Positions 3,655 through 57,347 are shown, counted from the first letter of the stretch. The stretch is DNA of 64,000 nt from Chloroflexota bacterium (GCA_026709625.1 JAPOSR010000044.1:186-64185); one strand, 5' to 3'. The notes: a model not told the origin generated them from the sequence alone. Numbers and translations: made by a program.

Positions 3655-4623
3655 TCATTCACGCAAGGCCCGCCCCGCCGCCGCGACCACCCGCGCATGA
3701 TGCTGCCCGTTGCTGATAATCATGCCGGCATTGGGCAGAGTCTCGCCGCGCGAAAAATCCAGCGCTTCGCCGTCCAGCCCCGTCGCCATGCCGCCAGCCG
3801 CCTGCACCAAGGCCACGCCAGCGGCATGATCCCAGACCTTGTGCGCATAACCGCTGCCCGCCCTCGGCAGGCGCATATACAAATCAGCATCGCCACAAGC
3901 CACCAAAGCATATTTCTCCATGCTGTCCAGCTCAACGATGCGCGCGCCGCCCAAACCCGCCAGCTCACGCGTCCGACCCATGCGCGATTTGCTGGCATGC
4001 GCCCGTTCATAGCTCTGCGCAACGACAAATTCATCGCCGCCGCGCCGCGCCGACACCGACACCCGCCGCCCAGCGCCGCCCGCCAATAACGCCCGCCAGG
4101 TCTCGCCAGCCTGGGTATAGAAGAGCGCGCCCTCGCCATCGTTATAGCCCGGCGCCGCCACGATGCCATCGGCAATCTCTCCATCGACCAGCAAGCCACA
4201 GGCGATTGCATAATGCCGCCGCGCCAAAAAACCTTTCGTGCCATCAATGGGGTCGATCACCCAGGTGCGCCGCGACCGCCGGCCCGCGCCGAAATCGAGC
4301 CAGGTCAAAAGCTGCGCCTCGCTCACTGCCTCGCCCAGCACAGCAGCCAGCAGCTGCAGCGCCTGCGCGCGTTTTTCGCTGGAGACCACCTGCCTGAATT
4401 GACGCCCCGATTCTTCGGCGATGACCGCGTCATCAGGATAGCGCTGCTGCAAAGCGCGGCAGATGATGGCCTGCGAGCCATAGTCGGCGATGGTCACCGG
4501 CTCGGTATGCGCGCCCGCCGTCTTTGCGCTGGCGCTCAGGTAGCGGTCTTGCACCAACTGGCAGAGTCTGGCGGCATCGCGCAGAGCCTCGTGCAATGCT
4601 TGCATCATTGTTCTTCCGATCAT
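3655..4623 (-). CDS. Inositol monophosphatase / 3'(2'),5'-bisphosphate nucleotidase (CysQ/HAL2-like) family
   Basis: Motifs VIAEESG, WVIDPIDGTKGF and KVWDHAAG are typical of the IMPase superfamily. Confidence 0.8.
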   Translation of the reverse strand: MIGRTMMQALHEALRDAARLCQLVQDRYLSASAKTAGAHTEPVTIADYGSQAIICRALQQRYPDDAVIAEESGRQFRQVVSSEKRAQALQLLAAVLGEAVSEAQLLTWLDFGAGRRSRRTWVIDPIDGTKGFLARRHYAIACGLLVDGEIADGIVAAPGYNDGEGALFYTQAGETWRALLAGGAGRRVSVSARRGGDEFVVAQSYERAHASKSRMGRTRELAGLGGARIVELDSMEKYALVACGDADLYMRLPRAGSGYAHKVWDHAAGVALVQAAGGMATGLDGEALDFSRGETLPNAGMIISNGQHHARVVAAAGRALRE

Positions 4624-5882: not shown

Positions 5883-5943
5883 CCATTGGCGATTGGGAGT
5901 GGCGAATCTGCTGGATGCGCGTTGCTTTGCCCCCCCAAAAAAT

Positions 5944-5967
5944 CCCTCCCTCAACAATGAGGGAGGG
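5944..5967. repeat. Perfect 10-bp-stem hairpin related to the dispersed repeat core
   Basis: CCCTCCCTCA acaa TGAGGGAGGG. Confidence 0.7.
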
Positions 5968-5996
5968 GCTACCATGCTGCGGAGGCGCTGGCAAAA

Positions 5997-39331: not shown

Positions 39332-41077
39332 ATGCCCTCTCATCATCAGTCCGAGTTGGAGCAAATCGTCAATCGCTGGGAGCAGCGACACGAGTGGCGA
39401 TTGCTTTCGCGCAGCATGCCCCGCTCGCTGATATTGGCGCTGTTATTGAGCTTGGCGGCCGGCGCGGCTGGCTATTTTTGGCTGGGGCTGCGGGCAGAGC
39501 AGCTGGCGCTGATTGCGGCGGGATTGTGCGCCTTCGGCTTTGCGGGCAACCTGCTGCGCACGGTGCTTTTTCCGCGCGATTTGCCCACCCGCGCGCGCTA
39601 TTTCGACATCGAGTTCAACCTCGGCGAGCGGGTATCGACCGCCTTTGAGCTGCTTTCGGGGCGCATCGGCACGCACCCGGATCTGGCGGCGCGGCAACTG
39701 GCGGATACGCTGGCGCAAGCGCGCGCCATCAACCCAAGCGAACGCATCGCCCTGGACTTTCGGCGTGGCGAGCTGGTTGCGCTGCTGGCGCTGGCTGTGG
39801 CGCTTTTGGGCATGATCGCGCTGCCGGCCATCGTGGGCGCAGAGCTGCTCGACCAGCCGCCGGCGGCGATTGAACTGGCGCGTGAAGACATCCGCGAGAT
39901 GATCGAGACGACCGCCAAAGACCCCGACCTCAACGAGATCGACCGCCAGGACGTGTTGGATGCGCTGGAGATCGCGCTGGAGCGACTGGAAGAAACCGAA
40001 ATCGGCCAAGAAGAAGCCTTCGCCGCTATGAGCCAGCTGGAAGCGCGCTTGGACGAACTCGAGCTGGAACTGGGCGAAACGATGGAGCTGGATCAGTCGG
40101 CGCTGCAGGCTGGGCTGGAAGCGCTTGCAGACTTTGCTCCGCCGCTGGATGAGAGCGGCAGCGAGCAGGCTGGCGATGATTTTGCGGCATTGAGCGAGGC
40201 GCTGGAGCAGTTGGCGCAAGATGCCCGCGATATGAGCGCGGACGAGCGTCTGAATGCGGCGGCGGCGCTGGATGCGGCGGCTGACGAACTGTCCGCGCTG
40301 GATGCGGCGCTGGAAGAGCGGCTCGATGACATGGCGCAGTCGCTGCAAGAAGGGCGGCAGGACCTGAGTGAGCAGCTGGATGCGGCGCAAGAAGCAGTCG
40401 CGCAAGAGCGGCAACAGAACCAAGGCCAGCAAAATGCGCAGCAGACTCTGCAAGAGCAAGCCGAACGCGCCCAAGAAGTCGCCGAGTCCATCGCCCGGCA
40501 GCAAAGGCAGCAAGGCGATCAACAAACTGAAGATGCCCAGGCTGGCGAGGCGGATCCGTCCGATTCGGGGCAGCCCCGCGCTGGGCAGGAAGGCGACCAA
40601 CAATCGGATCAAGCGCGCCCAGGCGCAAACCAAGGCCGCCAGCCGGCGCAGCGCAACGCCGAAAGCAGCGGCGCAGCCAGCCAGCGCAGCCAGGACAGCC
40701 GTGCCAGTGGTGGCGGCACGGGCCAAGGCGACCCCAGCAACCTCAGCATGGCGGGCAGCGGCGGCGAAGACCGCGGCGCGGAAACCAGCGACCGCTCGGC
40801 AGGCCGGGGCGCGATCGAATACGAAGCGCTCTACAGCCCCAGCGGCATCGGCGGTGGCGGCGAGAACGAAGTCCGCTTACAGACCGACCCTGGCGATACG
40901 ACGCTGGCAGAAGGCGAATTCGACGACAACCCACTGGGCGAATCGCGCGTGAGATATGACGCGGTCTTCAATGCGTATCAGCAGGCAGCCAACCGCGCGC
41001 TGGAAAGCGATTATGTGCCGCTGGGACTGCGCGATGTCGTGCGCGAGTATTTCACCTCGCTGGAGCCGGGCGGCTGA
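39332..41077 (+). CDS. Membrane-anchored, highly acidic/Gln-rich low-complexity protein
   Basis: Two or three N-terminal TM helices and ~300 aa of E/D/A/L/Q-rich helical repeats. A G/S/Q-rich disordered stretch follows. Conserved-looking C-terminus YVPLGLRDVVREYFTSLEP. Confidence 0.55.
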   Translation: MPSHHQSELEQIVNRWEQRHEWRLLSRSMPRSLILALLLSLAAGAAGYFWLGLRAEQLALIAAGLCAFGFAGNLLRTVLFPRDLPTRARYFDIEFNLGERVSTAFELLSGRIGTHPDLAARQLADTLAQARAINPSERIALDFRRGELVALLALAVALLGMIALPAIVGAELLDQPPAAIELAREDIREMIETTAKDPDLNEIDRQDVLDALEIALERLEETEIGQEEAFAAMSQLEARLDELELELGETMELDQSALQAGLEALADFAPPLDESGSEQAGDDFAALSEALEQLAQDARDMSADERLNAAAALDAAADELSALDAALEERLDDMAQSLQEGRQDLSEQLDAAQEAVAQERQQNQGQQNAQQTLQEQAERAQEVAESIARQQRQQGDQQTEDAQAGEADPSDSGQPRAGQEGDQQSDQARPGANQGRQPAQRNAESSGAASQRSQDSRASGGGTGQGDPSNLSMAGSGGEDRGAETSDRSAGRGAIEYEALYSPSGIGGGGENEVRLQTDPGDTTLAEGEFDDNPLGESRVRYDAVFNAYQQAANRALESDYVPLGLRDVVREYFTSLEPGG

Positions 41078-45796: not shown

Positions 45797-47662
45797 TCAG
45801 GCATACCAGTTTTCGCGCGTTTTGTTGGCTTCGTAGTCTTCGCGGGCGGCGCGGACGGCAGCCATCTCGCTGACTTCCGCCACCGGCACATCCCACCAGG
45901 CGCCATAGCCGGGCACCCGTTGCCGGCGGTCGACTTCGGTGATGATGCAAACCGGACCGCCTTGTATGGTCTTTGCCTTTTCGATCGCCGCCGCCAACTC
46001 TGCCCGGTCGCGGGCGCGGATAACATGCGCGCCCAGGCTCTCGCAATTTTTGGCGAAGTCGATGGGCAGGGTCTCGCCATCCAGCTGGCCGCTTTCGCTG
46101 CGATAGCGAAACTTCGTGCCAAATCCGTCGCTGCCGACCGCCTTGGATAGCGCGCCGATGCTGGCGTGTCCGTGGTTGTCCAGCACAAGGATGTTGACCT
46201 TGATGCCCTCTTGCACCATGGTCACGATCTCGGTGTGCATCATGAGGAAGCTGCCATCGCCGACCATCACCCAGACTTCATGATCGGGGTCGGCCAGTTT
46301 CACGCCCAGCCCGCCGGCGATCTCGTAGCCCATGGTCGAATAGCCATATTCCAGGTGATAGCCTTTGGGGTTGCGCGTTCGCCAGAGCTTGTGCAGGTCG
46401 CCGGGCATGCTGCCAGCCGCGCAGAGCACCGTGTCGCCAGCCGCCGACAGGCTGTTGACTATGCCGATGACCTCGCCCTGGCTGAGCATGGGTTCGTGCT
46501 CCAGGTTGTAGATGCGATGGACTTCGGCATCCCAAGCCTGGTTGAGCCCCTGCACGCGGGCGCGATAATCGGCGGCCACGCCATAATCCTCCAGCAGCGG
46601 CAGCAGTTCTTCCAGCGTGGCGCGGGCATCGCCCACCAGCGGCAGGGCATTGTGCTTGTGGGCGTCAAATTCAGCGACATTGATGTTGATGAAGCGCAGA
46701 TTTTCGTTGGCAAAGGCCGTCTTGGAGGCGTTGGTGAAGTCGCTGTAGCGCGTGCCAATGCCGATGACGAGGTCGGCTTCGGCGGCGATTTGGATGGCGC
46801 CTTCGGTGCCGGTTACGCCGGTCGCGCCCAGGTTGAGCGGGTTGTCATAGAGCAGCGAGCCCTTGCCAGCCTGCGTCTCGGCGACCGGGATGCCGGTGCG
46901 GGCGATGAAGCTTTCCAGCGCGGCATGGGCATCGCTGTAATGGACGCCACCCCCCGCGATGATGATGGGCTGCTGACTGCTGCGGATCCAGTCGGCGGCG
47001 CGCAGCAGCGCCCCTTGGTCGGGACGGTTGCGCGGGATATGCCAGACGCGCTTCTCGAAGAGGCTGCTGGGATACTCGTAGGCTTCGGCTTGCACATCCT
47101 GCGGCAGGCTGAGCGTCACCGCGCCGGTATCGGCCGGCGAAGTCAACACGCGCATGGCTGCGGGCAGAGCCGCGACCAACTGCTCGGGGCGGCTGATGCG
47201 GTCCCAATAACGCGAGACCGGCTTGAAGCAGTCGTTGACGCTGATATCTTGCGTGCGCTCGCTTTCGAGCTGCTGCAAGACAGGCGCCTGGATGCGCTCG
47301 GCGAATATGTCGCCCGGCAGGATCAACACGGGGATGCGGTTGACAGTGGCGACAGCCGCGCCCGTCAACATATTGGTCGCGCCCGGACCAATGGACGAAG
47401 CGCAGGCGAAAGTGGCCAAGCGGTTGCGCTGCTTGGCAAAAGCGACTGAAGCCAGCACCTGCGCCTGCTCGTTGCGAGATTGATAATAGCGGAAGCTGGG
47501 CGCGTATTGTTCGAGCGCCTGCCCGACTCCCGCGACATTGCCATGCCCAAAGATGCCCCACATGCCAGCGAAGAAGGGATTCTGCGCGCCATCACGCTCG
47601 ACATGCTGGCAGGCGAGGTAGCGGACGAGGGCTTGCGCCATGGTGAGGCGGGTGGTTTTCAT
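45797..47662 (-). CDS. iolD: 3D-(3,5/4)-trihydroxycyclohexane-1,2-dione acylhydrolase (ThDP-dependent)
   Basis: MKTTRLTMAQALVRYL..FGHGNVAGVGQALEQ..KPVSRYWDRISRPEQL aligns closely with Bacillus IolD as I recall it. Confidence 0.85.
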   Translation of the reverse strand: MKTTRLTMAQALVRYLACQHVERDGAQNPFFAGMWGIFGHGNVAGVGQALEQYAPSFRYYQSRNEQAQVLASVAFAKQRNRLATFACASSIGPGATNMLTGAAVATVNRIPVLILPGDIFAERIQAPVLQQLESERTQDISVNDCFKPVSRYWDRISRPEQLVAALPAAMRVLTSPADTGAVTLSLPQDVQAEAYEYPSSLFEKRVWHIPRNRPDQGALLRAADWIRSSQQPIIIAGGGVHYSDAHAALESFIARTGIPVAETQAGKGSLLYDNPLNLGATGVTGTEGAIQIAAEADLVIGIGTRYSDFTNASKTAFANENLRFININVAEFDAHKHNALPLVGDARATLEELLPLLEDYGVAADYRARVQGLNQAWDAEVHRIYNLEHEPMLSQGEVIGIVNSLSAAGDTVLCAAGSMPGDLHKLWRTRNPKGYHLEYGYSTMGYEIAGGLGVKLADPDHEVWVMVGDGSFLMMHTEIVTMVQEGIKVNILVLDNHGHASIGALSKAVGSDGFGTKFRYRSESGQLDGETLPIDFAKNCESLGAHVIRARDRAELAAAIEKAKTIQGGPVCIITEVDRRQRVPGYGAWWDVPVAEVSEMAAVRAAREDYEANKTRENWYA

Positions 47663-47682
47663 GCGGGTGTCCTTTCAGGCAC

Positions 47683-48570
47683 TCAGTCTCTAATAATACG
47701 AAACGGCGCGTTAACTGCTTCCCAAGCTCGAACCTCATCAAACAACGATGTCTGAACAAAGTAATCAAATTCGTAAGCTGTTCGCAGACTAGCCGACAGT
47801 GTTGTACTAGCAAGCGCTAGGCGAGTGGTATCCCTCAAGGGTACGCCAAATTCGCGCTCGAATAGAGATGGAAAAATTAGTGCAATGATATAAACAGCGT
47901 CATGTCCGTTACATAGCTTTATGCTGCCATTAGGAAATTTATTTCGAAGCGCCTTCACTTCTGCAATTAGCCGGTCACTCTGCAACTCTCGTATGTTTTC
48001 GCAAAGTCGCCTAGCTGCCCAGCTTCTGTCAAACTCCAGAGTCTCCACATCAATAACATCCTTGAGATTAAACTCCTTGAAGTTGATGCCATAATTGTGT
48101 TTAGCGTTGAGACAGCGAAAGAGTCCTATCTCCTCAGCCAATTTTAGAGCTTCATGTCTTAGTTTTTCTGCAAACGCATGTACTTCTTCAATCTCCACTT
48201 GTGTTAAATGATTTCGTAATATCTTCGCCAGTGCTGGCGAGTCAAGCAACATGATTTCACTATCTGGGCATGTATTATCGTATAATAAATTCTGTCTATC
48301 CAGCTCATCTGATCGGAGAATAAGATTATAGTCCGCATCCACAATTGCGGCCAAACCTCGAATATCGCGGAACATAGATGAATCGAGCAAAGATAACAGA
48401 TTCTGTTTTCCGTTTACTCGTTCCAATCTGCAATTGTTTTCAACTGTGAAATCCCACCATAGAGCTTCATCAGTACGACCTTCTACTAGAACAAATGCTA
48501 GCGCTTTGTTCCGCATTCGAGACATGAAGATCAGATTGAATAAGTAATGTGGAGTCTTTCTCGGACCCAT
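47683..48570 (-). CDS. DUF4435/TOPRIM-like protein, AriB-like partner of the upstream ATPase
   Basis: N-terminal ..ALAFVLVEGRTDEALWWDF.. then AAIVDADYN (acidic TOPRIM-type motifs). AT-rich. The Met at 48570 abuts the ATPase stop (48573). Confidence 0.65.
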   Translation of the reverse strand: MGPRKTPHYLFNLIFMSRMRNKALAFVLVEGRTDEALWWDFTVENNCRLERVNGKQNLLSLLDSSMFRDIRGLAAIVDADYNLILRSDELDRQNLLYDNTCPDSEIMLLDSPALAKILRNHLTQVEIEEVHAFAEKLRHEALKLAEEIGLFRCLNAKHNYGINFKEFNLKDVIDVETLEFDRSWAARRLCENIRELQSDRLIAEVKALRNKFPNGSIKLCNGHDAVYIIALIFPSLFEREFGVPLRDTTRLALASTTLSASLRTAYEFDYFVQTSLFDEVRAWEAVNAPFRIIRD

Positions 48571-48572
48571 TC

Positions 48573-49949
48573 CTAGCACACACCTTCTGGGTACCGAAGC
48601 CCTACTACCCACTCCCATTTGTCGTCGACCAACGTGGGCGAATGAGTAGCGATAAGGAGGTCGAAATGTCTAAATGCAATAACATCTCTTAGGTCGTCCA
48701 GGAATCTTTCCTGCCAATCGACGTGCAGCGAAAGTTCGGGCTCGTCAATCATTATTAGAGAATTATGCTCAACATGAAACAGCAGTTGATAGATCAGAAT
48801 TAGTTCATGCTGCTCTCCGGAGGATAAACTGGTCTTTGGTATCTCATTACCTTTGTTGTCCTTAAATATAAAACCCTTACGCTTGTCGATCTCAAGTGTC
48901 TTGCACATGAATCGATTATTGATGATGGCTATGAGAATTTCGAGTTGGCGGGATATTGCGTCGACCTTTGAGAGTTTCGCTTCTATGTCTTGCACATAGA
49001 TTGATAGTACATCTGTGAGATTATTCTGCGTAGTGTCGTCCAGCTTTGGAATCTCAGGAACATCCTTATCTTCAAATAATCCAAGCTTAATTAGCTTTGC
49101 CGTCTTCTTCTCAAGTTCGTCAAGTTTCTCCTGCAGATTATCTTGAGCAATTAGCTCTGTTCCATCTGATTCAATTAATCGTTTTGGAAAGCTACGATCA
49201 CGTATTTGCGATTCTTGTCCGTATTCGGCCATCGCGTTACCGATTTCTTTGGCAATTTCCTCAGAATATCTTACGACCGTTGCTTTTGGCGCTGACGAAG
49301 CTCGTCTCCTGCGCGATGACAGATAAGCAGAAAAGCCTAACGGTCGAGTGGGTTCGGGATCCTGAAGCCTTTGCGCCTGAATTAAACGAGTCCGGGTACT
49401 CCTCTTTATATCCTTCATCCACTTAGGTTCATTGTAGAGATATACCTGAAAGTCATATGCCGCTATGACTTCTTCAATGGTCAATACATCTCCGGTTAGG
49501 ATATTCTCCCATCTTGTACTTCCTATGGATGACAGCTCTGGCTTTGACTCTGCCAGTTCTCTGACGCGCGCCAATCCCTGGCGAGTGGGTTTGGGGTTGT
49601 AAGTTTGCTCATTTGAACCATTGCTATCGAAATATCGAAGCACCAGAGACTCTTCAATTGGATCACTGTCTCGATCTCCCTCTGCTGCATCCCTTGTTTC
49701 TAATTCGGTATAGTTTCCTTCAATACAAACTCGCTCCCCACTTGATAATTCAACGCTAAACGACCCAAAGGGTATGCTCAAGAACACTCCGTAATTTGAC
49801 GTAAACAAACCATTGATCATCTTCATCAGAACGGTCTTGCCGATTCCATTTGGTCCATGAATGATTGATATCCGAGAGTCCTGATTCAGTCGAATCTCAT
49901 GGTCAAACATGTCAAACAACTTCGTTACTGTAACACTACGGATGCGCAT
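48573..49949 (-). CDS. ABC/SMC-like AAA ATPase (AAA_15/AAA_21 type), AriA-like
   Basis: Walker A IHGPNGIGKT, ~280-aa helical insert, signature LSSGEQ, Walker B LIMIDEPELSLH, H-loop IATHSP. AT-rich. Confidence 0.8.
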   Translation of the reverse strand: MRIRSVTVTKLFDMFDHEIRLNQDSRISIIHGPNGIGKTVLMKMINGLFTSNYGVFLSIPFGSFSVELSSGERVCIEGNYTELETRDAAEGDRDSDPIEESLVLRYFDSNGSNEQTYNPKPTRQGLARVRELAESKPELSSIGSTRWENILTGDVLTIEEVIAAYDFQVYLYNEPKWMKDIKRSTRTRLIQAQRLQDPEPTRPLGFSAYLSSRRRRASSAPKATVVRYSEEIAKEIGNAMAEYGQESQIRDRSFPKRLIESDGTELIAQDNLQEKLDELEKKTAKLIKLGLFEDKDVPEIPKLDDTTQNNLTDVLSIYVQDIEAKLSKVDAISRQLEILIAIINNRFMCKTLEIDKRKGFIFKDNKGNEIPKTSLSSGEQHELILIYQLLFHVEHNSLIMIDEPELSLHVDWQERFLDDLRDVIAFRHFDLLIATHSPTLVDDKWEWVVGLRYPEGVC

Positions 49950-50000
49950 GAATCGCTACCCTCAAACTATTCCCTTCAGTATGCCATTCATTGTACCACA

Positions 50001-50882
50001 TTACCCCTCCATCCCATGATGCACAATCGGCAGGCGCGGGTCCACGAATGTCCATGTGCCTTTCACCCAGGCGTAGGCTGGATCATCGCTGTTGGCCAGT
50101 GACTGCGCGCTGCCCGCCAAGAAGTTCAGGTAATAGGTCGTGTAGCCATGCGCGCTGACGACCGGGTGATAACCCTCGGGCACGAGCACGCTGTCATGCT
50201 GCCCGGCCATCATCAAGCCATCGATGCTGCGGTCGTCATTGTAGACGCGCTGAACCGCATAGCCGCCGGGATGGTTGAGCTTGTAGAAATAAATCTCTTC
50301 CAGGTCGGCTTCCAGCAAGTTGCCCGCGTCATCTTCGACATGAACATCGTGTTTGTGCGGCGGATAGCTCGACCAATTGCCGCTGGGCGTATACACCTCC
50401 ACCGCCACGATGCGATGACAATTGAAGCCGGGCGGGAGGATGCCGTTGATCTGCCGCGAGGCATTGCCGCCGCCGCGCAGCTCGATCGCGCACATATCGG
50501 GCGTCACCAACTGCGTGGGGAAGTCTTGGTCGGTGGGCACCCAGCACTGGGCGAACTCGAGCCATTCGCTGGTGGCTTTGATTTCATAGTCCTTTCCGCG
50601 AGACAGGTAGAGCGCATAGGGCATGCCATCAAAGACATCGCGCCGCCGCCCGACATTGAAAAAGTCGCCATCGCTCGTGCGGATATCGCATGTGCCGCCG
50701 AGGATGACGAAGGCATTTTCACAGCCCAAAGTGTTGTGGCTCTGGCTTCGTCCACGCCGCAGTCGCCGCGCCCGAAAGTTTAGGTATTCCCAGCCGGCTT
50801 GCGCAGCGCTGACCTCGGCGAATACCCCGCTGCCGCCGCTGTCTTTGGATTTGATGAGCATGGTCTCGGCTGTATAGTTCAT
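50001..50882 (-). CDS. iolB: 5-deoxy-glucuronate isomerase
   Basis: VEVYTPSGNWSSYPPHKHD..QRVYNDDRSID..VPEGYHPVVSAHGYTTYYLNFLAG closely matches Bacillus IolB as recalled. Confidence 0.85.
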   Translation of the reverse strand: MNYTAETMLIKSKDSGGSGVFAEVSAAQAGWEYLNFRARRLRRGRSQSHNTLGCENAFVILGGTCDIRTSDGDFFNVGRRRDVFDGMPYALYLSRGKDYEIKATSEWLEFAQCWVPTDQDFPTQLVTPDMCAIELRGGGNASRQINGILPPGFNCHRIVAVEVYTPSGNWSSYPPHKHDVHVEDDAGNLLEADLEEIYFYKLNHPGGYAVQRVYNDDRSIDGLMMAGQHDSVLVPEGYHPVVSAHGYTTYYLNFLAGSAQSLANSDDPAYAWVKGTWTFVDPRLPIVHHGMEG

Positions 50883-52530: not shown

Positions 52531-52766
52531 GGCGCAGCCTTTCTGCTTGTGGGCGGCTCCGCCAGTCTAGCGATATCGCCCACGCAATTCAATGCGACAG
52601 CCAGGTAGCGAAGATTGTTGCCGGGCGAGGCGCTAACTCGCCAGCAAATCTGAAGCCCTTTGTGCAAATTGCATGAGTTGCTGCGGATTTTCTTTGCGAA
52701 AAGCGTATACAGATTCATCCTCGCAGGTCTCGCTTAGCGGTTTCTAGCCACAATGGAGGTAATCTT

Positions 52767-53342
52767 GTGAAAACGCTGTTGGCGATCCTATCGGTATGCA
52801 TCCTTGCGCTTTCGGGAGGCATCCCCGTTTTTGGGGATGACATTTCTGAATGGGACGCTGCGTTGGAAGCCCTTGGTTTTCAACGGGTATCGAGCAGTTC
52901 TGTCCCCAGTAAGATTCAGGCTTCGTCCAGTTTGTGGCCCAGTACGCTGGGAGAAATCTTATCGCTCATTGAGTCAAGATCATCTACCGCATCCCAGCAA
53001 GTCAGTGGCGCTACATTGTACTCGGCAAACCGTAGCTATGAATGCGCTAAGTTGGTGGGTGGTCTCGGGCACGGGTGGTTCAGGCATTACGTTGACGGTG
53101 TCATAGACAGACGCCACGGCAAGCAGATTTTCGCTAGCTCAAGCAACAACCGCTGGGCTCATACGGGTCTTACATTGGGTACGCAGTTATCCAACGTAAG
53201 TACAAGTAGCCGTATCTCCTCAGACGCGCGAACACTGACAATGCGAAGTTCTTGGGTAGTATCCGTCTATGTGCCGACGCCTTGGGGAGATTACTACTTT
53301 CATTCGGAGTCCGTGAGCAACAGATGCTCCAAGAGCCCATGA
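52767..53342 (+). CDS. Secreted hypothetical protein (cassette copy 1)
   Basis: GTG start with a GGAGG RBS. Signal peptide MKTLLAILSVCILALSGG. Ser-rich 190-aa body with no motif I recognise. Lower GC than the flanks. Confidence 0.5.
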   Translation: MKTLLAILSVCILALSGGIPVFGDDISEWDAALEALGFQRVSSSSVPSKIQASSSLWPSTLGEILSLIESRSSTASQQVSGATLYSANRSYECAKLVGGLGHGWFRHYVDGVIDRRHGKQIFASSSNNRWAHTGLTLGTQLSNVSTSSRISSDARTLTMRSSWVVSVYVPTPWGDYYFHSESVSNRCSKSP

Positions 53343-53566
53343 TGCTGGGAATCGAACAGTTGGGGATCAACCCCACTCACATGGCGCTCACCGCGCTCTG
53401 GATCGCGTCCTATTGCTTTGCTGTTGCCTGGTTGATTCGCTGCGCGCGAGCCGGCCTTGTCAAGCGGACTTGGCTATGGGGACTTGTCATTTTGTTTGTC
53501 CCAGCGGGTCAATTCGCCACGATGCTTTGGCTTTTTTCTATGAGTCAGAAAGCCAAAGCGAAGTAA
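53339..53566 (+). CDS. Small two-helix membrane protein (PLDc_N-like W..LVILFVP motif)
   Basis: ATGA overlap with the upstream stop. MMLGIEQLG..ALTALWIASYCFAVAWLI..TWLWGLVILFVPAGQFATMLWLF..KAKAK. Confidence 0.45.
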   Translation: MMLGIEQLGINPTHMALTALWIASYCFAVAWLIRCARAGLVKRTWLWGLVILFVPAGQFATMLWLFSMSQKAKAK

Positions 53567-53788
53567 CGACCAGACGCAAAGTCAACTCAAGCCCCCTGCC
53601 CAGCTTGGCGGGGACCTCACAGCATCGGGAAACAAGCGGGAATTTGTGCATAATGCATGAATATACTTTGAATATCTATGTTTGTGTATCACAATAAATA
53701 TCGTTGTGGCTGAGGGAAAAGGAGGAATAAGAGTAGCAGTTTGCGACATGCGCGTTTCGCGGTTTAATTCCACTATGGAGGCAATCTC

Positions 53789-54388
53789 GTGAAGACGCTG
53801 TTGGCATTTATCCTGACGATCGTAGTTGCATCTGTTGGTGTTTCTCCTAACTTTGGGGAGAGGTACAGAGAGCCAAGCACTTTCTGCTCAAGAAATGACG
53901 ATTTTGTCTTCGATGGGCTTTCAGCCTGCCTCTGCTAGAGATCATGCCGAAGCTACCGCCGCCGGAATATCATTTTTGCAAGTAAACAGTATAGCGGGAG
54001 CGGCTGCCGTACTTAATCAGTCGCAGAGCGCTTACTCACCAATTGCGCAGCAAACCATAGCAAAAGCTTCCATCGGCAGTTATCAGACATGGGAGTCGTG
54101 TACCAGAAATGCTTGGACATGGTGGGTCAACGCCGAGGCGCGTGTAACCATAAAACCCAAGGAAGTGATAAGAGGTACGGCGCTGTCCATGAAAAGAGAT
54201 TAACATTAGCTGGGTTTCACCCCGCAACTTGGCTTCATAACCCAAGCCTGTGGACAGAACATCGTAATCACCATCGTGTCCCGCGGCTAAACAATCGTAC
54301 ATATGTGAAAGTGGGGATCGTCATTGCAGGGAACGAGTTGGTATACACCTATGGGCATGTCAGTTGGTCCTGCGACTTCACCGCATAA
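53789..54388 (+). pseudogene. Divergent paralog of 52767-53342 broken by two frameshifts (cassette copy 2)
   Basis: Same RBS and leader (GTGAAgACGCTGTTGGC; MKTLLAFILTIVVA). The body continues in ORF 53826-54203, then ORF 54089-54388. Total span of 600 nt compares with 576 nt in copy 1. Confidence 0.45.
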
Positions 54389-54402
54389 CTCGGGAGCTTG
54401 CT

Positions 54403-54546
54403 ATGTTCGATATACCGTTCCTCATTCTCTCAACTCTCGTCTCGGTTGGAGTGACGGCTTTCATTGTGATCAGTTTATACTACATCATCCGCTTGCTGAA
54501 AGAGCTTGTGCAGTATCTGCATAAGCTGAACAACGAAGATGACTAG
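54403..54546 (+). CDS. Small single-helix membrane protein
   Basis: MFDIPFLILSTLVSVGVTAFIVISLYYIIRLLKEL.. with GGGAG 8 nt upstream. Same position as 53339-53566 in copy 1. Confidence 0.4.
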   Translation: MFDIPFLILSTLVSVGVTAFIVISLYYIIRLLKELVQYLHKLNNEDD

Positions 54547-54602
54547 GCGAAGTCAATCCCAGCGAGCCCCTGTCAAATGCGGCGAGGGCTTAGCTTTCTC
54601 GG

Positions 54603-55858: not shown

Positions 55859-57347
55859 TCAAGCTGAGATTCTGCCGCGGCGTTTGCGCCCATACTGCGG
55901 AGGCAAATGAAGAGGCTTGTCCCTCAGTAAATCATCGACGCTATAGCCTTGAATCACTGGGTATTCATTGCCAAAACCACCATCCCAAGTCTCACGGCTG
56001 CGCTGGTTTTCAACCGTGCCCATCTGCTCCTTAAAACATACCATCACTCCCGCGACTGCCTCGACGCGGCGCACCGTCTCGCTCAAGGCTTTCACATCCT
56101 CCGCTCGCACATTCCCGCCCTTGACCTGCACCACGATCGATTCTTCATAGACGACGCCTTTGCGGACAACGGGCAGGATGATCTCACCATCAATCCCGCC
56201 ATCCGGACCCTTGTCGCCCGGCTGTTTGCGCAGGCCCATCTTGTTGACGCCGATGCGCCCGCAGACCCATTTTTCAAACTCGAAGGGGCTTTCACGCGCC
56301 AATTGCCTGGCTGTCCGATCGTTATAGGGCAGTCCGACAATGTCGATAGCCGACGCATGCACCCGCGCGGGATAATTGGAAAGGATGCGCTGCCGCATCA
56401 GCTCGGTCGAGAAACGCGAAATGTCAATGCCGATCCATTGGCGATTTAGTTGCTCAGCGGCGTGCACGGTCGTGCCGCAGCCACAGAAGGGGTCGAGCAC
56501 AATGTCGCCCTCATTGGATGAGGCGCGGATGATGCGCTCCAAAAGGGCAAGTGGCTTTTGCGTGGGATAGCCGAGCCGTTCTTTGGACACAGGAGAAAGG
56601 ATAGGAATGTACCACCAGTCACCAACTGCTATTTCTGCCGAAATAGCGCGCTTTATTGGTCTGCCCATATCGTCCTTCGCGGTCACAGTTTTCCCGAACG
56701 AGTCCTTTGCACTAACATACTGAGACGGATTAGGGTTATCGTTCGGCACCATGATAGGAATAAAATTCCATTCTTTCGTATTGGCATACCAGAGAATAAT
56801 GTCATGCAGGCGTGGCAACTGTCGCTTGCTCGCTGTCCATCTCTTATAGCACCACACTATTTCATTTCTGAAGTTCTGCTTTTCAAAAATCGCGTCCATT
56901 ACCACTTTCAAATAATGACTCGCAGTCGGGTCGCAATGCAGGTAAATGCTGCCCGTCGGCTTCAACACGCGCTTCATCGCCAGCAGGCGTTCCGACATAT
57001 TCAGCAGGTAAGATGCCAGGCTGTTGGTTCTTTTTCTCCTACCCCCCCCCGTACATGTGTTCTATACGCTGCGCCACCTCGACGATCATCGCCAGCGTCG
57101 GGCGCGGATCGGGCAGTTTCTTGAACTCCGCCAGTCTCGTATCATCATCGGCTGTCCATGTCCAGGTATCCACAAAGGCTTCGACAGGCTCATAGCCTTT
57201 GTCCTTGCCTTTGAATGGCAGGTTGTATTTGGCATTGGAATTGAACGGCGGGTCAAGGTAAATGAGGTCAACCGATTCGGGTTGGATGTAGTCGCGCAGG
57301 ATATTGAGGCAATCGCCTCGGTAGAGCTTGCGTAGCGGGTTTGACAT
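55859..57347 (-). pseudogene. DNA methyltransferase (beta-class) fused to an Mrr-like PD-(D/E)xK domain, split by a frameshift in a G9 run
   Basis: ORF 57039-57347 (..VDLIYLDPPFNSN..MYGGG*) and ORF 55859-56998 (..TGSIYLHCDPTASHYLK..ERLGYPTQKPL..VLDPFCGCGTT..FEFEKWV..GPDGGIDGEI..VVQVKGG). Removing one G restores a ~496-aa frame. Confidence 0.85.
57042..57050. repeat. C9 (G9 on the coding strand) homopolymer at the frameshift site
   Basis: Line 57041 reads a ccccccccc g. The reading frames of the two ORFs differ by exactly one nucleotide across it. Confidence 0.9.

Follow-up and report, generated by a model that had tools for sequence, protein, structure and literature searches.

Within a 64,000-nucleotide (nt) stretch of DNA from a Chloroflexota bacterium (GCA_026709625.1, JAPOSR010000044.1:186-64185; hereafter the window), two minus-strand genes at positions 47,683 to 49,949 occupy the gap between iolB and iolD of a myo-inositol gene cluster; they encode an ABC ATPase and a DUF4435/TOPRIM protein and are the subject of this study. 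The original prediction, made from the sequence alone, had read them as a PARIS-type (AriA/AriB-like) anti-phage pair, and our analysis supports this reading: the first product matches Pfam AAA_21 and AAA_15, the second matches DUF4435 above the gathering score, PADLOC recognizes both AriA and AriB, and the modeled fold of the second protein is that of AriB. The description of the locus was accurate as well. The two AT-rich genes abut each other in the predicted orientation and at the predicted coordinates, the iolB and iolD flanks pass their equivalog cut-offs, the spacers measure 51 and 20 nt, and the motifs that had been quoted (GPNGIGKT, LSSGEQ, the Walker B stretch, ATHSP, VLVEGRTDE and IVDADYN) are all present where they had been placed (Table 1).

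The genes are adjacent and co-oriented, with ariA first and only 2 nt between its stop and the start of ariB. A longer reading of ariB (311 amino acids, aa) is possible from 48618, and public gene calls on the same DNA differ (445 or 458 aa for AriA; 277, 280 or 295 aa for AriB); the starts adopted here, which give 458 and 295 aa, are those backed by the alignments of homologues and by the structure model. The gene downstream of iolD encodes a Gfo/Idh/MocA oxidoreductase that scores below the IolG cut-off, therefore we regard the cluster as iol-type and not as a complete canonical operon. The sharp composition break at both junctions, formerly judged by eye, is borne out by the sliding GC content, which is 0.42-0.45 within the pair versus 0.58-0.65 outside and forms the deepest trough of the 64-kb window. 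The genes themselves have a GC content of 0.42-0.44 against 0.60-0.63 in the flanks, and the GC content of third codon positions (GC3) is 0.44 for ariA and 0.38 for ariB against 0.75 for iolB and 0.80 for iolD. As had been anticipated, no integrase or transposase was matched by Pfam among the called genes of L001, a 21.4-kb stretch that covers the pair and 10 kb on each side of it, and no tRNA genes, tmRNA genes or Rfam families were found in the 64-kb window.

The ATPase

The product of the first gene matches AAA_21 (2.5e-19) and AAA_15 (1.1e-16). Its top PADLOC model is AriA (PDLC04164, 1.5e-25, 88.2 bits), followed by PtuA models at 78 bits, and its top sequence match in the PDB is the AriA of the E. 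coli PARIS complex (8ux9_B, 3.6e-13; PtuA, 4e-4). By these scores the protein appears to be nearer to AriA than to other defence ATPases, by a modest margin. The part encoded by 48636..48827 aligns with the segment of E. coli AriA that bears the IDEPE(I)SLH and THSP motifs.

A comparison of 17 cassettes, whose AriA variants span 362-460 aa, illustrates a sharp division within the protein. Identity is about 0.8 over the first 40 residues and 0.5-0.74 in the C-terminal motifs, whereas residues 81-340 vary in length and show a mean pairwise identity of only 0.03-0.29 per block of 20 aa. At third codon positions the conserved N-terminus is just 0.49 identical, therefore its conservation reflects constraint at the protein level; recent DNA exchange was rejected for the same reason as a cause of the near-invariant N-terminus. 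The combination of a conserved ATPase engine and a variable middle agrees with the reported poor conservation of the trigger-binding pore residues of E. coli AriA across PARIS homologues and clades (PMC11464382).

The DUF4435/TOPRIM protein and its family

The second protein matches DUF4435 (PF14491) with 31.7 bits against a gathering score of 27 and DUF3226 weakly, with no HNH match, and AriB is its sole PADLOC model (PDLC02983, 6.4e-13). DUF4435 is likewise matched by 129 of the 147 representatives of its family. The best sequence and profile matches in the PDB are generic TOPRIM proteins (1t6t, 0.015; RNase M5, 0.45), aligned on the VEGxxD and DxD motifs. An AlphaFold2 model built from an alignment of 90 sequences (pLDDT 94.1, pTM 0.90) has just one match in the PDB at E <= 0.001, namely 8ux9_A, the 306-aa AriB of the PARIS complex, and this match is full-length (333 columns, probability 1.00, TM 0.55/0.53). 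It was the fold comparison of this predicted structure that settled the identity of the protein as a DUF4435/TOPRIM relative of AriB. A first AlphaFold2 model from 6 sequences (pLDDT 71.5, with 55-67 in the TOPRIM half) had returned meaningless Foldseek matches and was superseded.

The acidic residues of the TOPRIM core are intact. E30, D34, D78, D80, D103 and E105 are invariant across the 90-member alignment, and among the 147 representatives E30, D78 and D80 remain invariant, with D34, D103 and E105 at least 90% conserved. In E. coli AriB the matching acidic residues are, in order, E26, D30, D88, E90 and E122, and the E26A mutation abolishes defence (PMC11464382).

An exhaustive profile search shows that the family is large, with 3,655 representatives at E <= 1e-3, of which 852 remain at E <= 1e-30; its rarity had been wrongly suggested by the 6 relatives that a single-protein, word-indexed search returned. 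In all four wider members that we sampled, the gene overlaps by 4 bp with that of an AAA_15/21 ATPase (441-459 aa) directly upstream of it, and three of the four contexts contain transposases, toxin-antitoxin modules or CRISPR-Cas. Embedding in operons as a habit of the whole family was therefore rejected, since these three relatives reside in ordinary defence or mobile neighbourhoods. A second embedding in a gene string was observed outside Chloroflexota, in an Acidobacteriota metagenome-assembled genome (MAG; GCA_016789605.1, L093 3679-5858): a co-oriented KASIII-ACP-AMP-ligase ... SnoaL-diacylglycerol kinase-acyltransferase string encloses a family pair of 441 + 285 aa, whose GC content is 0.44 as compared to 0.55 in the flanks; stop and start codons overlap.

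Viral carriage was looked for as well and was not supported: IMG/VR viral contigs yielded no relative of the window's clade, and GenBank phages gave a single match to AriB, of 22% identity, in one P2-like phage. An independent link to AriB was nevertheless obtained, as the family profile reaches the DUF4435 protein of a P2-like Yersinia phage ATPase + DUF4435 pair with 99.7% probability (E 7e-26); this protein is AriB by PADLOC (1.3e-23), and its ATPase partner scores about equally for the PtuA and AriA models.

The iolB-iolD slot in related species

We located relatives of the locus by scanning species-representative genomes with IolD. The clade consists of uncultured Chloroflexota (Anaerolineae; Aggregatilineales/Phototrophicaceae), and individual loci are referred to by L numbers. 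An intact pair of AriA-like (362-460 aa) and AriB-like (294-319 aa) genes lies upstream of iolD in 14 species representatives (L011-L013, L015, L017-L025, L027), whose IolD is 80-92% identical to that of the window. On the other side of the pair iolB is seen in 13 of these 14, the contig of L021 ending within the slot. One further lineage (L089) has the same arrangement, which brings the PARIS-like pairs in this slot to 16 lineages, the window's own included, with the same architecture in all sister cassettes. Altogether the slot is readable in 19 sister lineages and is occupied in every one of them: 16 hold PARIS-like pairs, two hold type II restriction-modification (R-M) systems and one holds a methyltransferase fusion. 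Both iolB and iolD flank it in 18 lineages; L010 and L021 show the iolD side only, where their contigs end.

The cargo that is not PARIS-like is also of the defence kind. In L016 (3839-5943) the slot contains an N6/N4 methyltransferase with an SPPY motif and a TdeIII-family restriction endonuclease, and the closest relative of the window (L010 30-1372; IolD 95%) has an R-M cassette of the same type. The two endonucleases are 84% identical and the IolD proteins of their hosts 82%, therefore this type of cassette is patchily distributed over the clade. In L014 (3185-5968) the slot is filled by a single open reading frame (ORF) of 927 aa with an N6_Mtase domain and weak MmeI_Mtase and type IIG matches, preceded by a GGCGGTATAATGG leader as found before many PARIS-like cassettes.

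Slots with PARIS-like pairs have a GC content of 0.44-0.52 against 0.60-0.65 in the flanks, with the exception of L025 (flanks 0.53-0.55, slot 0.44), and the range over all cargo is 0.44-0.55. The cargo stays 10-20 GC points under its host everywhere, although the nearest known relatives of every cassette come from this very slot. A pair conserved at this place with native composition, which would have spoken against the original prediction, is not what we find: the composition is non-native throughout and the cassettes are not simple orthologues. The empty iolB-iolD junction that had been proposed as a check does exist. In L030, L032 and L038 iolB abuts iolD with 35-60 nt between them, and these are only distant relatives (IolD 71-73%). 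The idea of an insertion into the operon held in part, in that the pair looks foreign; a single insertion event in this genome did not, as the slot is occupied clade-wide. Because it is filled across the clade by mutually divergent cassettes, we describe the slot as a hotspot rather than as the site of a single insertion.

Second PARIS-like pairs were observed in the same gene string, between a PhyH-family gene and the Gfo/Idh/MocA gene downstream of iolD (L015 8875-11009, L018 8814-10870), and a second ariA-like gene lies about 5.5 kb downstream in L024 (from 13383). These second-slot cassettes are of the 'short AriA' clade, which in other species occupies the first slot.

Exchange of the cassettes

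The flanking genes and the cassettes between them tell different histories. In pairwise comparison IolD is 80-96% and IolB 81-98% identical, as opposed to 30-73% for AriA and 24-65% for AriB, and cassette identity does not correlate significantly with host identity (Spearman 0.15 and -0.13). In neighbour-joining trees with bootstrap, where IolB+IolD served as the host tree, the host sisters L005/L011, L022/L024 and L016/L018 are each grouped at 100%. The members of the pairs L005/L011 and L022/L024 nevertheless carry AriAs of different deep clades (100% and 99% bootstrap), L016 has R-M where L018 (IolB 98%) has PARIS, and L021 and L022 are 96% identical in IolD and only 28% in AriB. The two cassette genes conflict with each other as well: the AriA split {L005, L013, L015a, L017, L024, L027}, at 99% bootstrap, is incompatible with the AriB split {L013, L015a, L017, L018a, L020, L023, L027}, at 86%. 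This suggests that the window's pair and that of L024 are A/B reassortants, as far as neighbour-joining trees can indicate.

The sequence comparisons thus indicate that the content of the slot is exchanged between sister species and not inherited, and that the slot acts inside the operon as a defence hotspot of the replacement type, because flanks of 80-98% identity enclose pairs of 24-73% identity and the trees conflict at 99-100% bootstrap. The limits of the exchanged segment can be read from DNA homology. Between species it breaks off at the iolB stop codon, although at many loci the first 120-150 nt of ariA are homologous as well; ariB shows no such homology, which returns about 15 nt before the iolD ATG, in the leader CTGAAAGGACxCCxC. 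Most sister loci keep this leader, irrespective of PARIS-like or R-M cargo, and a similar GAAAGGA precedes iolD in the empty site of L032. A target-site duplication, for which 'ccttcag-like' strings had been put forward, has to be abandoned, since the copy near 47668 is part of this conserved ribosome-binding leader. A repeat search of the cassette ends flagged no terminal direct or inverted repeats, and neither the 20-nt right spacer nor the ends of the cassette contain an attC-type imperfect inverted repeat. An integron gene cassette was therefore rejected, as there is neither an attC-like repeat nor an integrase Pfam match among the called genes around the pair. The simplest route of exchange would be homologous recombination in the conserved iolB and iolD flanks; flank recombination has been proposed for core defence hotspots of P. 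aeruginosa (PMC10250203).

Transcription and junction elements

A -10-like element, TGGTACAAT, lies 2 nt past the iolB stop, and GGTATAATGG-like motifs stand at the same place in eight sister cassettes, the methyltransferase cargo of L014 included. This putative promoter may add constitutive transcription. Intrinsic terminator-like sites were not found (0 against 2.4 expected). Because the spacing is tight, the iolD leader is retained and no terminator-like site is present, the pair is probably transcribed together with iolB and iolD by read-through.

Some sister loci have junctions of another kind. In 'short AriA' cassettes GC-rich, hairpin-forming elements stand directly after the iolB stop, for example CCCCTCTCCC-n6-GGGAGGGG. 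Such elements, which are repetitive extragenic palindrome-like or terminator-like in look, were seen in L011 (~3765-3800 and ~5930-5975, the latter at the right edge before the iolD leader) and at the left junctions of L019 and L022; the cassette of the window has none.

Other features of the window

Three further regions of the window deserve mention. A 379-aa type II N6/N4 DNA methyltransferase is encoded at 55859-56998 on the minus strand, next to an enolase-superfamily gene and in a mild GC dip (~0.54-0.56). It matches PADLOC MTase_II (PDLC03339, 1.3e-62), falls below the cut-offs of the NCBIfam adenine methyltransferase models and has a weak C-terminal Mrr_cat match; a partner restriction endonuclease was not identified, and the gene may be an orphan or a fused R-M element. 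A second low-GC stretch (0.46-0.54) lies at 52600-54600, with a zinc-dependent alcohol dehydrogenase gene on one side and an MR_MLE gene on the other. None of its plus-strand ORFs (191 aa, with a signal-peptide-like N-terminus; 104 aa; 125 aa) is matched by Pfam or PADLOC, and gene calls vary among assemblies of one lineage; it may be another variable islet. Finally, a plus-strand ORF of 581 aa at 39332-41077, without a Pfam match, has hydrophobic N-terminal segments followed by a long, highly acidic low-complexity region rich in E/D/A/Q, and accounts for an extreme AT skew (up to 0.63) and a GC content of 0.66-0.69 at 40.2-41.0 kb.

Table 1. Genes, spacers and protein motifs at the iolB-iolD slot (positions counted from the first nucleotide of the window)
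Feature	Position	Strand	Evidence or remark
iolB, 5-deoxy-glucuronate isomerase, upstream flank of the slot	50001..50882	-	NCBIfam TIGR04378 equivalog, 305.7 bits vs cut-off 205; Pfam KduI/IolB 4.5e-79
iolB-side spacer opening the cassette, 51 nt	49950..50000	-	-10-like TGGTACAAT at 49990-49998; GAGGG Shine-Dalgarno-like motif before ariA
ariA-like gene, ABC ATPase, 458 aa	48573..49949	-	Pfam AAA_21 + AAA_15, PADLOC AriA, PDB AriA
AriA Walker A, GPNGIGKT	aa 32-39, 49833..49856	-	within N-terminal 40 aa, ~80% identical across cassette variants
AriA hypervariable middle	aa 81-340 (~260 residues), 48930..49709	-	putative helical sensor/scaffold insert
AriA signature, LSSGEQ	aa 375-380, 48810-48827	-	motif position computed
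AriA Walker B, LIMIDEPELSLH, with catalytic Glu	aa 398-409, 48723-48758	-	motif position computed
AriA H-loop, ATHSP	aa 434-438, 48636-48650	-	motif position computed
ariB-like gene, predicted DUF4435/TOPRIM nuclease, 295 aa	47683..48570	-	Pfam, PADLOC, AlphaFold2 fold match
AriB TOPRIM acidic motifs	48250..48492	-	VLVEGRTDE aa 27-35 (E30, D34); IVDADYN aa 76-82 (D78, D80); CPDSEIM (D103, E105)
iolD leader GTGCCTGAAAGGACACCCGC, 20 nt, right edge of the slot	47663..47682	-	DNA homology among species restarts here
iolD, trihydroxycyclohexane-1,2-dione (THcHDO) acylhydrolase, downstream flank of the slot	45797..47662	-	NCBIfam TIGR04377 equivalog, 912.8 bits vs cut-off 715

Discussion

Our data imply that the two genes are very probably a remote member of the PARIS (AriA/AriB) family, residing in a replacement-type defence hotspot in the iolB-iolD gap of uncultured Chloroflexota. 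Comparison with the E. coli B185 system, which is carried by a P4-like satellite (8ux9, 8v45-8v49; PMC11464382, PMC10802264, PMC12409363), reveals the same order and orientation of the ABC ATPase and DUF4435/TOPRIM genes, similar protein sizes (464 + 306 aa in 8ux9 against 458 + 295 aa here), intact ATPase and TOPRIM residues, a full-length AriB fold, AriA as the top PDB match, and the contrast between a conserved ATPase head and a weakly conserved sensor region. Sequence and model comparisons thus qualify the pair as PARIS in its domain pair, gene order, fold, catalytic residues and best match of the ATPase, while direct similarity to E. coli AriB in sequence or profile was not detected. The location differs, since E. 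coli PARIS sits on a phage or satellite hotspot and the Chloroflexota pair inside a chromosomal catabolic gene string. So does the apparent history: ariA and ariB are reported not to be swapped frequently (PMC11464382), whereas the AriA and AriB trees conflict here for the window's pair and L024 (99%, 86%).

Other ATPase-based systems were compared as well. The pair of Yersinia phage vB_YenM_31.17, an ATPase and a DUF4435 protein beside an integrase, shares the two-gene architecture, and its DUF4435 protein is AriB by PADLOC, but the pair is phage-borne, in the lysogeny region (for the concept of P2-like phage hotspots see PMC9122126), and the identity to the window's AriB is only ~20%. Septu/retron PtuA-PtuB and OLD/Gabija use related AAA_15/21 ABC ATPases, and OLD and GajA use TOPRIM as well. 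In Septu, however, the partner is the HNH protein PtuB, whereas the partner here is DUF4435 with no HNH match; OLD and GajA differ in that the ATPase and TOPRIM parts are in separate genes here; and neither a UvrD-like GajB nor a reverse transcriptase, as in Gabija or retrons, is found near the window's pair.

The hotspot itself has known counterparts. In the core defence hotspots and replacement islands described for P. aeruginosa (cDHS1/2, PMC10250203) and E. coli (PMC10121019), too, conserved flanks enclose variable low-GC cargo, different systems occupy one site, the cargo phylogeny disagrees with that of the host, and mobility genes are missing from some sites. The slot described here is, in contrast, a gap of ~50 nt between two co-oriented enzymes of the same pathway with no terminator, it takes a single cassette of 2.0-2.8 kb and not a multi-kb island, and it is kept across lineages at the species level (IolD 80-96%) and not among strains of one species. 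One type of system dominates it (PARIS-like in 16 of 19), and there is no tRNA or tmRNA gene in the 64-kb window.

We infer a defence activity, the formation of a complex, a trigger and an RNA target from homology to the E. coli system, and the sequence of events would be as follows. The ABC ATPase AriA, with its long and variable insert of helices, would assemble into a scaffold in which the TOPRIM nuclease AriB is kept inactive. Binding of a phage-encoded trigger protein to the variable part of AriA would then release AriB. The freed AriB would cut essential host RNA, so that translation stops and the infection is aborted. The targets of E. coli PARIS are tRNA-Lys, tRNA-Thr and tRNA-Asn (PMC11464382, PMC12409363).

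Several observations weigh against this interpretation. The remoteness from enterobacterial PARIS, which the original prediction had rightly remarked, is considerable: E. coli AriA can be aligned only over the N- and C-terminal ATPase motifs, the PDB chain of E. coli AriB was not reached at E <= 10 by phmmer, by a 6-sequence profile or by a 147-sequence profile, and AriB shares just 14% identity with E. coli AriB in the structural alignment, so that the latter is reached by fold only. By sequence criteria this failure shows remoteness within DUF4435 and does not amount to an exclusion; the AriB of the Yersinia phage is reached by the family profile. The PtuA (Septu/retron) ATPase models score nearly as high as AriA (78 versus 88 bits), therefore the ATPase alone does not discriminate and the family assignment is carried by its DUF4435 partner. 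The discordance of cassettes and hosts is read from neighbour-joining trees only. The promoter-like element of the leader was not called by a consensus scan, and promoter-like matches in the region are at chance level. Lastly, both the trigger and the cleaved RNA may be entirely different from those of E. coli PARIS.

One could argue that the pair is a selfish, toxin-antitoxin-like addiction module, in which AriB is a toxin and AriA its neutralizer and which is kept because its loss is lethal, with no net protection from phages. The depositors of PDB 8v45/8v46 indeed named the ATPase 'AriA antitoxin', Pfam describes AAA_21 as 'putative AbiEii toxin, Type IV TA system', and all 19 readable sister slots are occupied, their cargo apparently having been replaced and not simply lost. 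We consider this unlikely. Addiction does not exclude defence, since PARIS itself is a trigger-released toxin (PMC11464382); the hypervariable middle of AriA beside a conserved ATPase head better fits an arms race with phage triggers, and R-M systems alternate with the pairs in the same slot. The position of the cassettes could also be explained if they mobilized themselves in the manner of free-standing homing endonucleases, the TOPRIM nuclease, along with the ATPase, cutting DNA at or near empty or foreign iolB/iolD junctions and recombinational repair then copying the cassette into the site. The identical intergenic position and orientation in 16 lineages, the second copies in a nearby gap of the same gene string (L015, L018) and further downstream (L024), the AT-rich cassette that lacks an integrase or transposase and disagrees with the host phylogeny, and the Acidobacteriota relative wedged into another gene string would all suit such a behaviour. 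Yet unrelated cargo (type II R-M, methyltransferase fusion) uses the same slot, and the site is therefore not specific to the AriB nuclease; moreover, the AriB fold matches an enzyme that cleaves tRNA (PMC12409363), most wider members of the family reside in ordinary defence or mobile neighbourhoods, and no target-like repeat stands at the junctions. Self-mobilization of this kind is thus very unlikely. A bolder form of the idea, to which we give little credence as well, is that PARIS-like cassettes actively home into the intergenic gaps of the gene string by cutting junctions that are free of a cassette or hold a rival one, and are copied in by repair; it would account for the exact position, the fixed orientation, the second copies that three species have a few kb downstream, the missing mobility gene and the dominance of one system. 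In a milder variant, frequency-dependent selection would keep the slot polymorphic as an 'allelic' immune locus of the whole family, the AriA and AriB modules being reshuffled and expression tied to inositol catabolism.

The remaining explanations dispense with exchange or with defence altogether. Under a single ancestral insertion the pair would have been inherited vertically and would have diverged very fast under diversifying selection. This would explain why all 19 sister lineages have the slot occupied, why some neighbouring hosts share cassette types (L020/L023, L017/L027) and why the R-M endonucleases are about as diverged as the IolD of their hosts (84% versus 82%). It was rejected on the tree conflict and is highly improbable, as the conflicts are strongly supported (L005/L011, L022/L024, L016/L018, L021/L022), there is no correlation with host distance, and a long residence should have drifted GC3 hostward, yet it stands at 0.38-0.44 against 0.75-0.80. 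A role in inositol uptake or catabolism, with the ATPase as the ATP-binding subunit of an ABC transporter and the second gene as an accessory metabolic protein, is hinted at by the place of the pair inside the iol gene string and by a weak Pfam ABC_tran match (26.5 bits) confined to the region of Walker A. However, genes for a permease or a binding-protein partner are missing next to the pair, the NCBIfam transporter models fall far under their cut-offs and the composition of the pair is foreign; the inositol pathway does not need the pair, since the slot is filled by R-M in L010 and L016 and is empty in L030, L032 and L038, and the probability of such a role is negligible. Equally negligible is a chimera of metagenome assembly, which the origin of the window from a MAG lineage and the abrupt composition break might bring to mind: at least six independently made assemblies, MAG GCA_026708885.1 among them, show the identical gene arrangement although their samples and pipelines differ, therefore it is not an assembly artefact, and homologous arrangements are found in long chromosome-level MAG records such as OZ242001.1 and OZ243936.1.

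With a remote PARIS member in a replacement-type hotspot as the favored explanation, PARIS extends to uncultured Chloroflexota, where its effector is tied to the characterized AriB by fold comparison only. Both the system and the kind of locus are known; what is unusual is the combination of one intergenic gap, one cassette, persistence across species and dominance of one system. The locus thus illustrates that a defence hotspot can consist of no more than one intergenic gap within a metabolic gene string, and that such a site can be retained from species to species. At least 17 natural PARIS variants are found at the sister loci in a common genomic setting, and all of them combine a conserved ATPase head and TOPRIM core with a hypervariable middle of AriA. 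This panel is well suited to locating the part of AriA that determines trigger specificity and to learning if AriA and AriB modules can be re-paired. Should the cassette share a transcript with iolB and iolD, immunity would be tied to a catabolic regulon.

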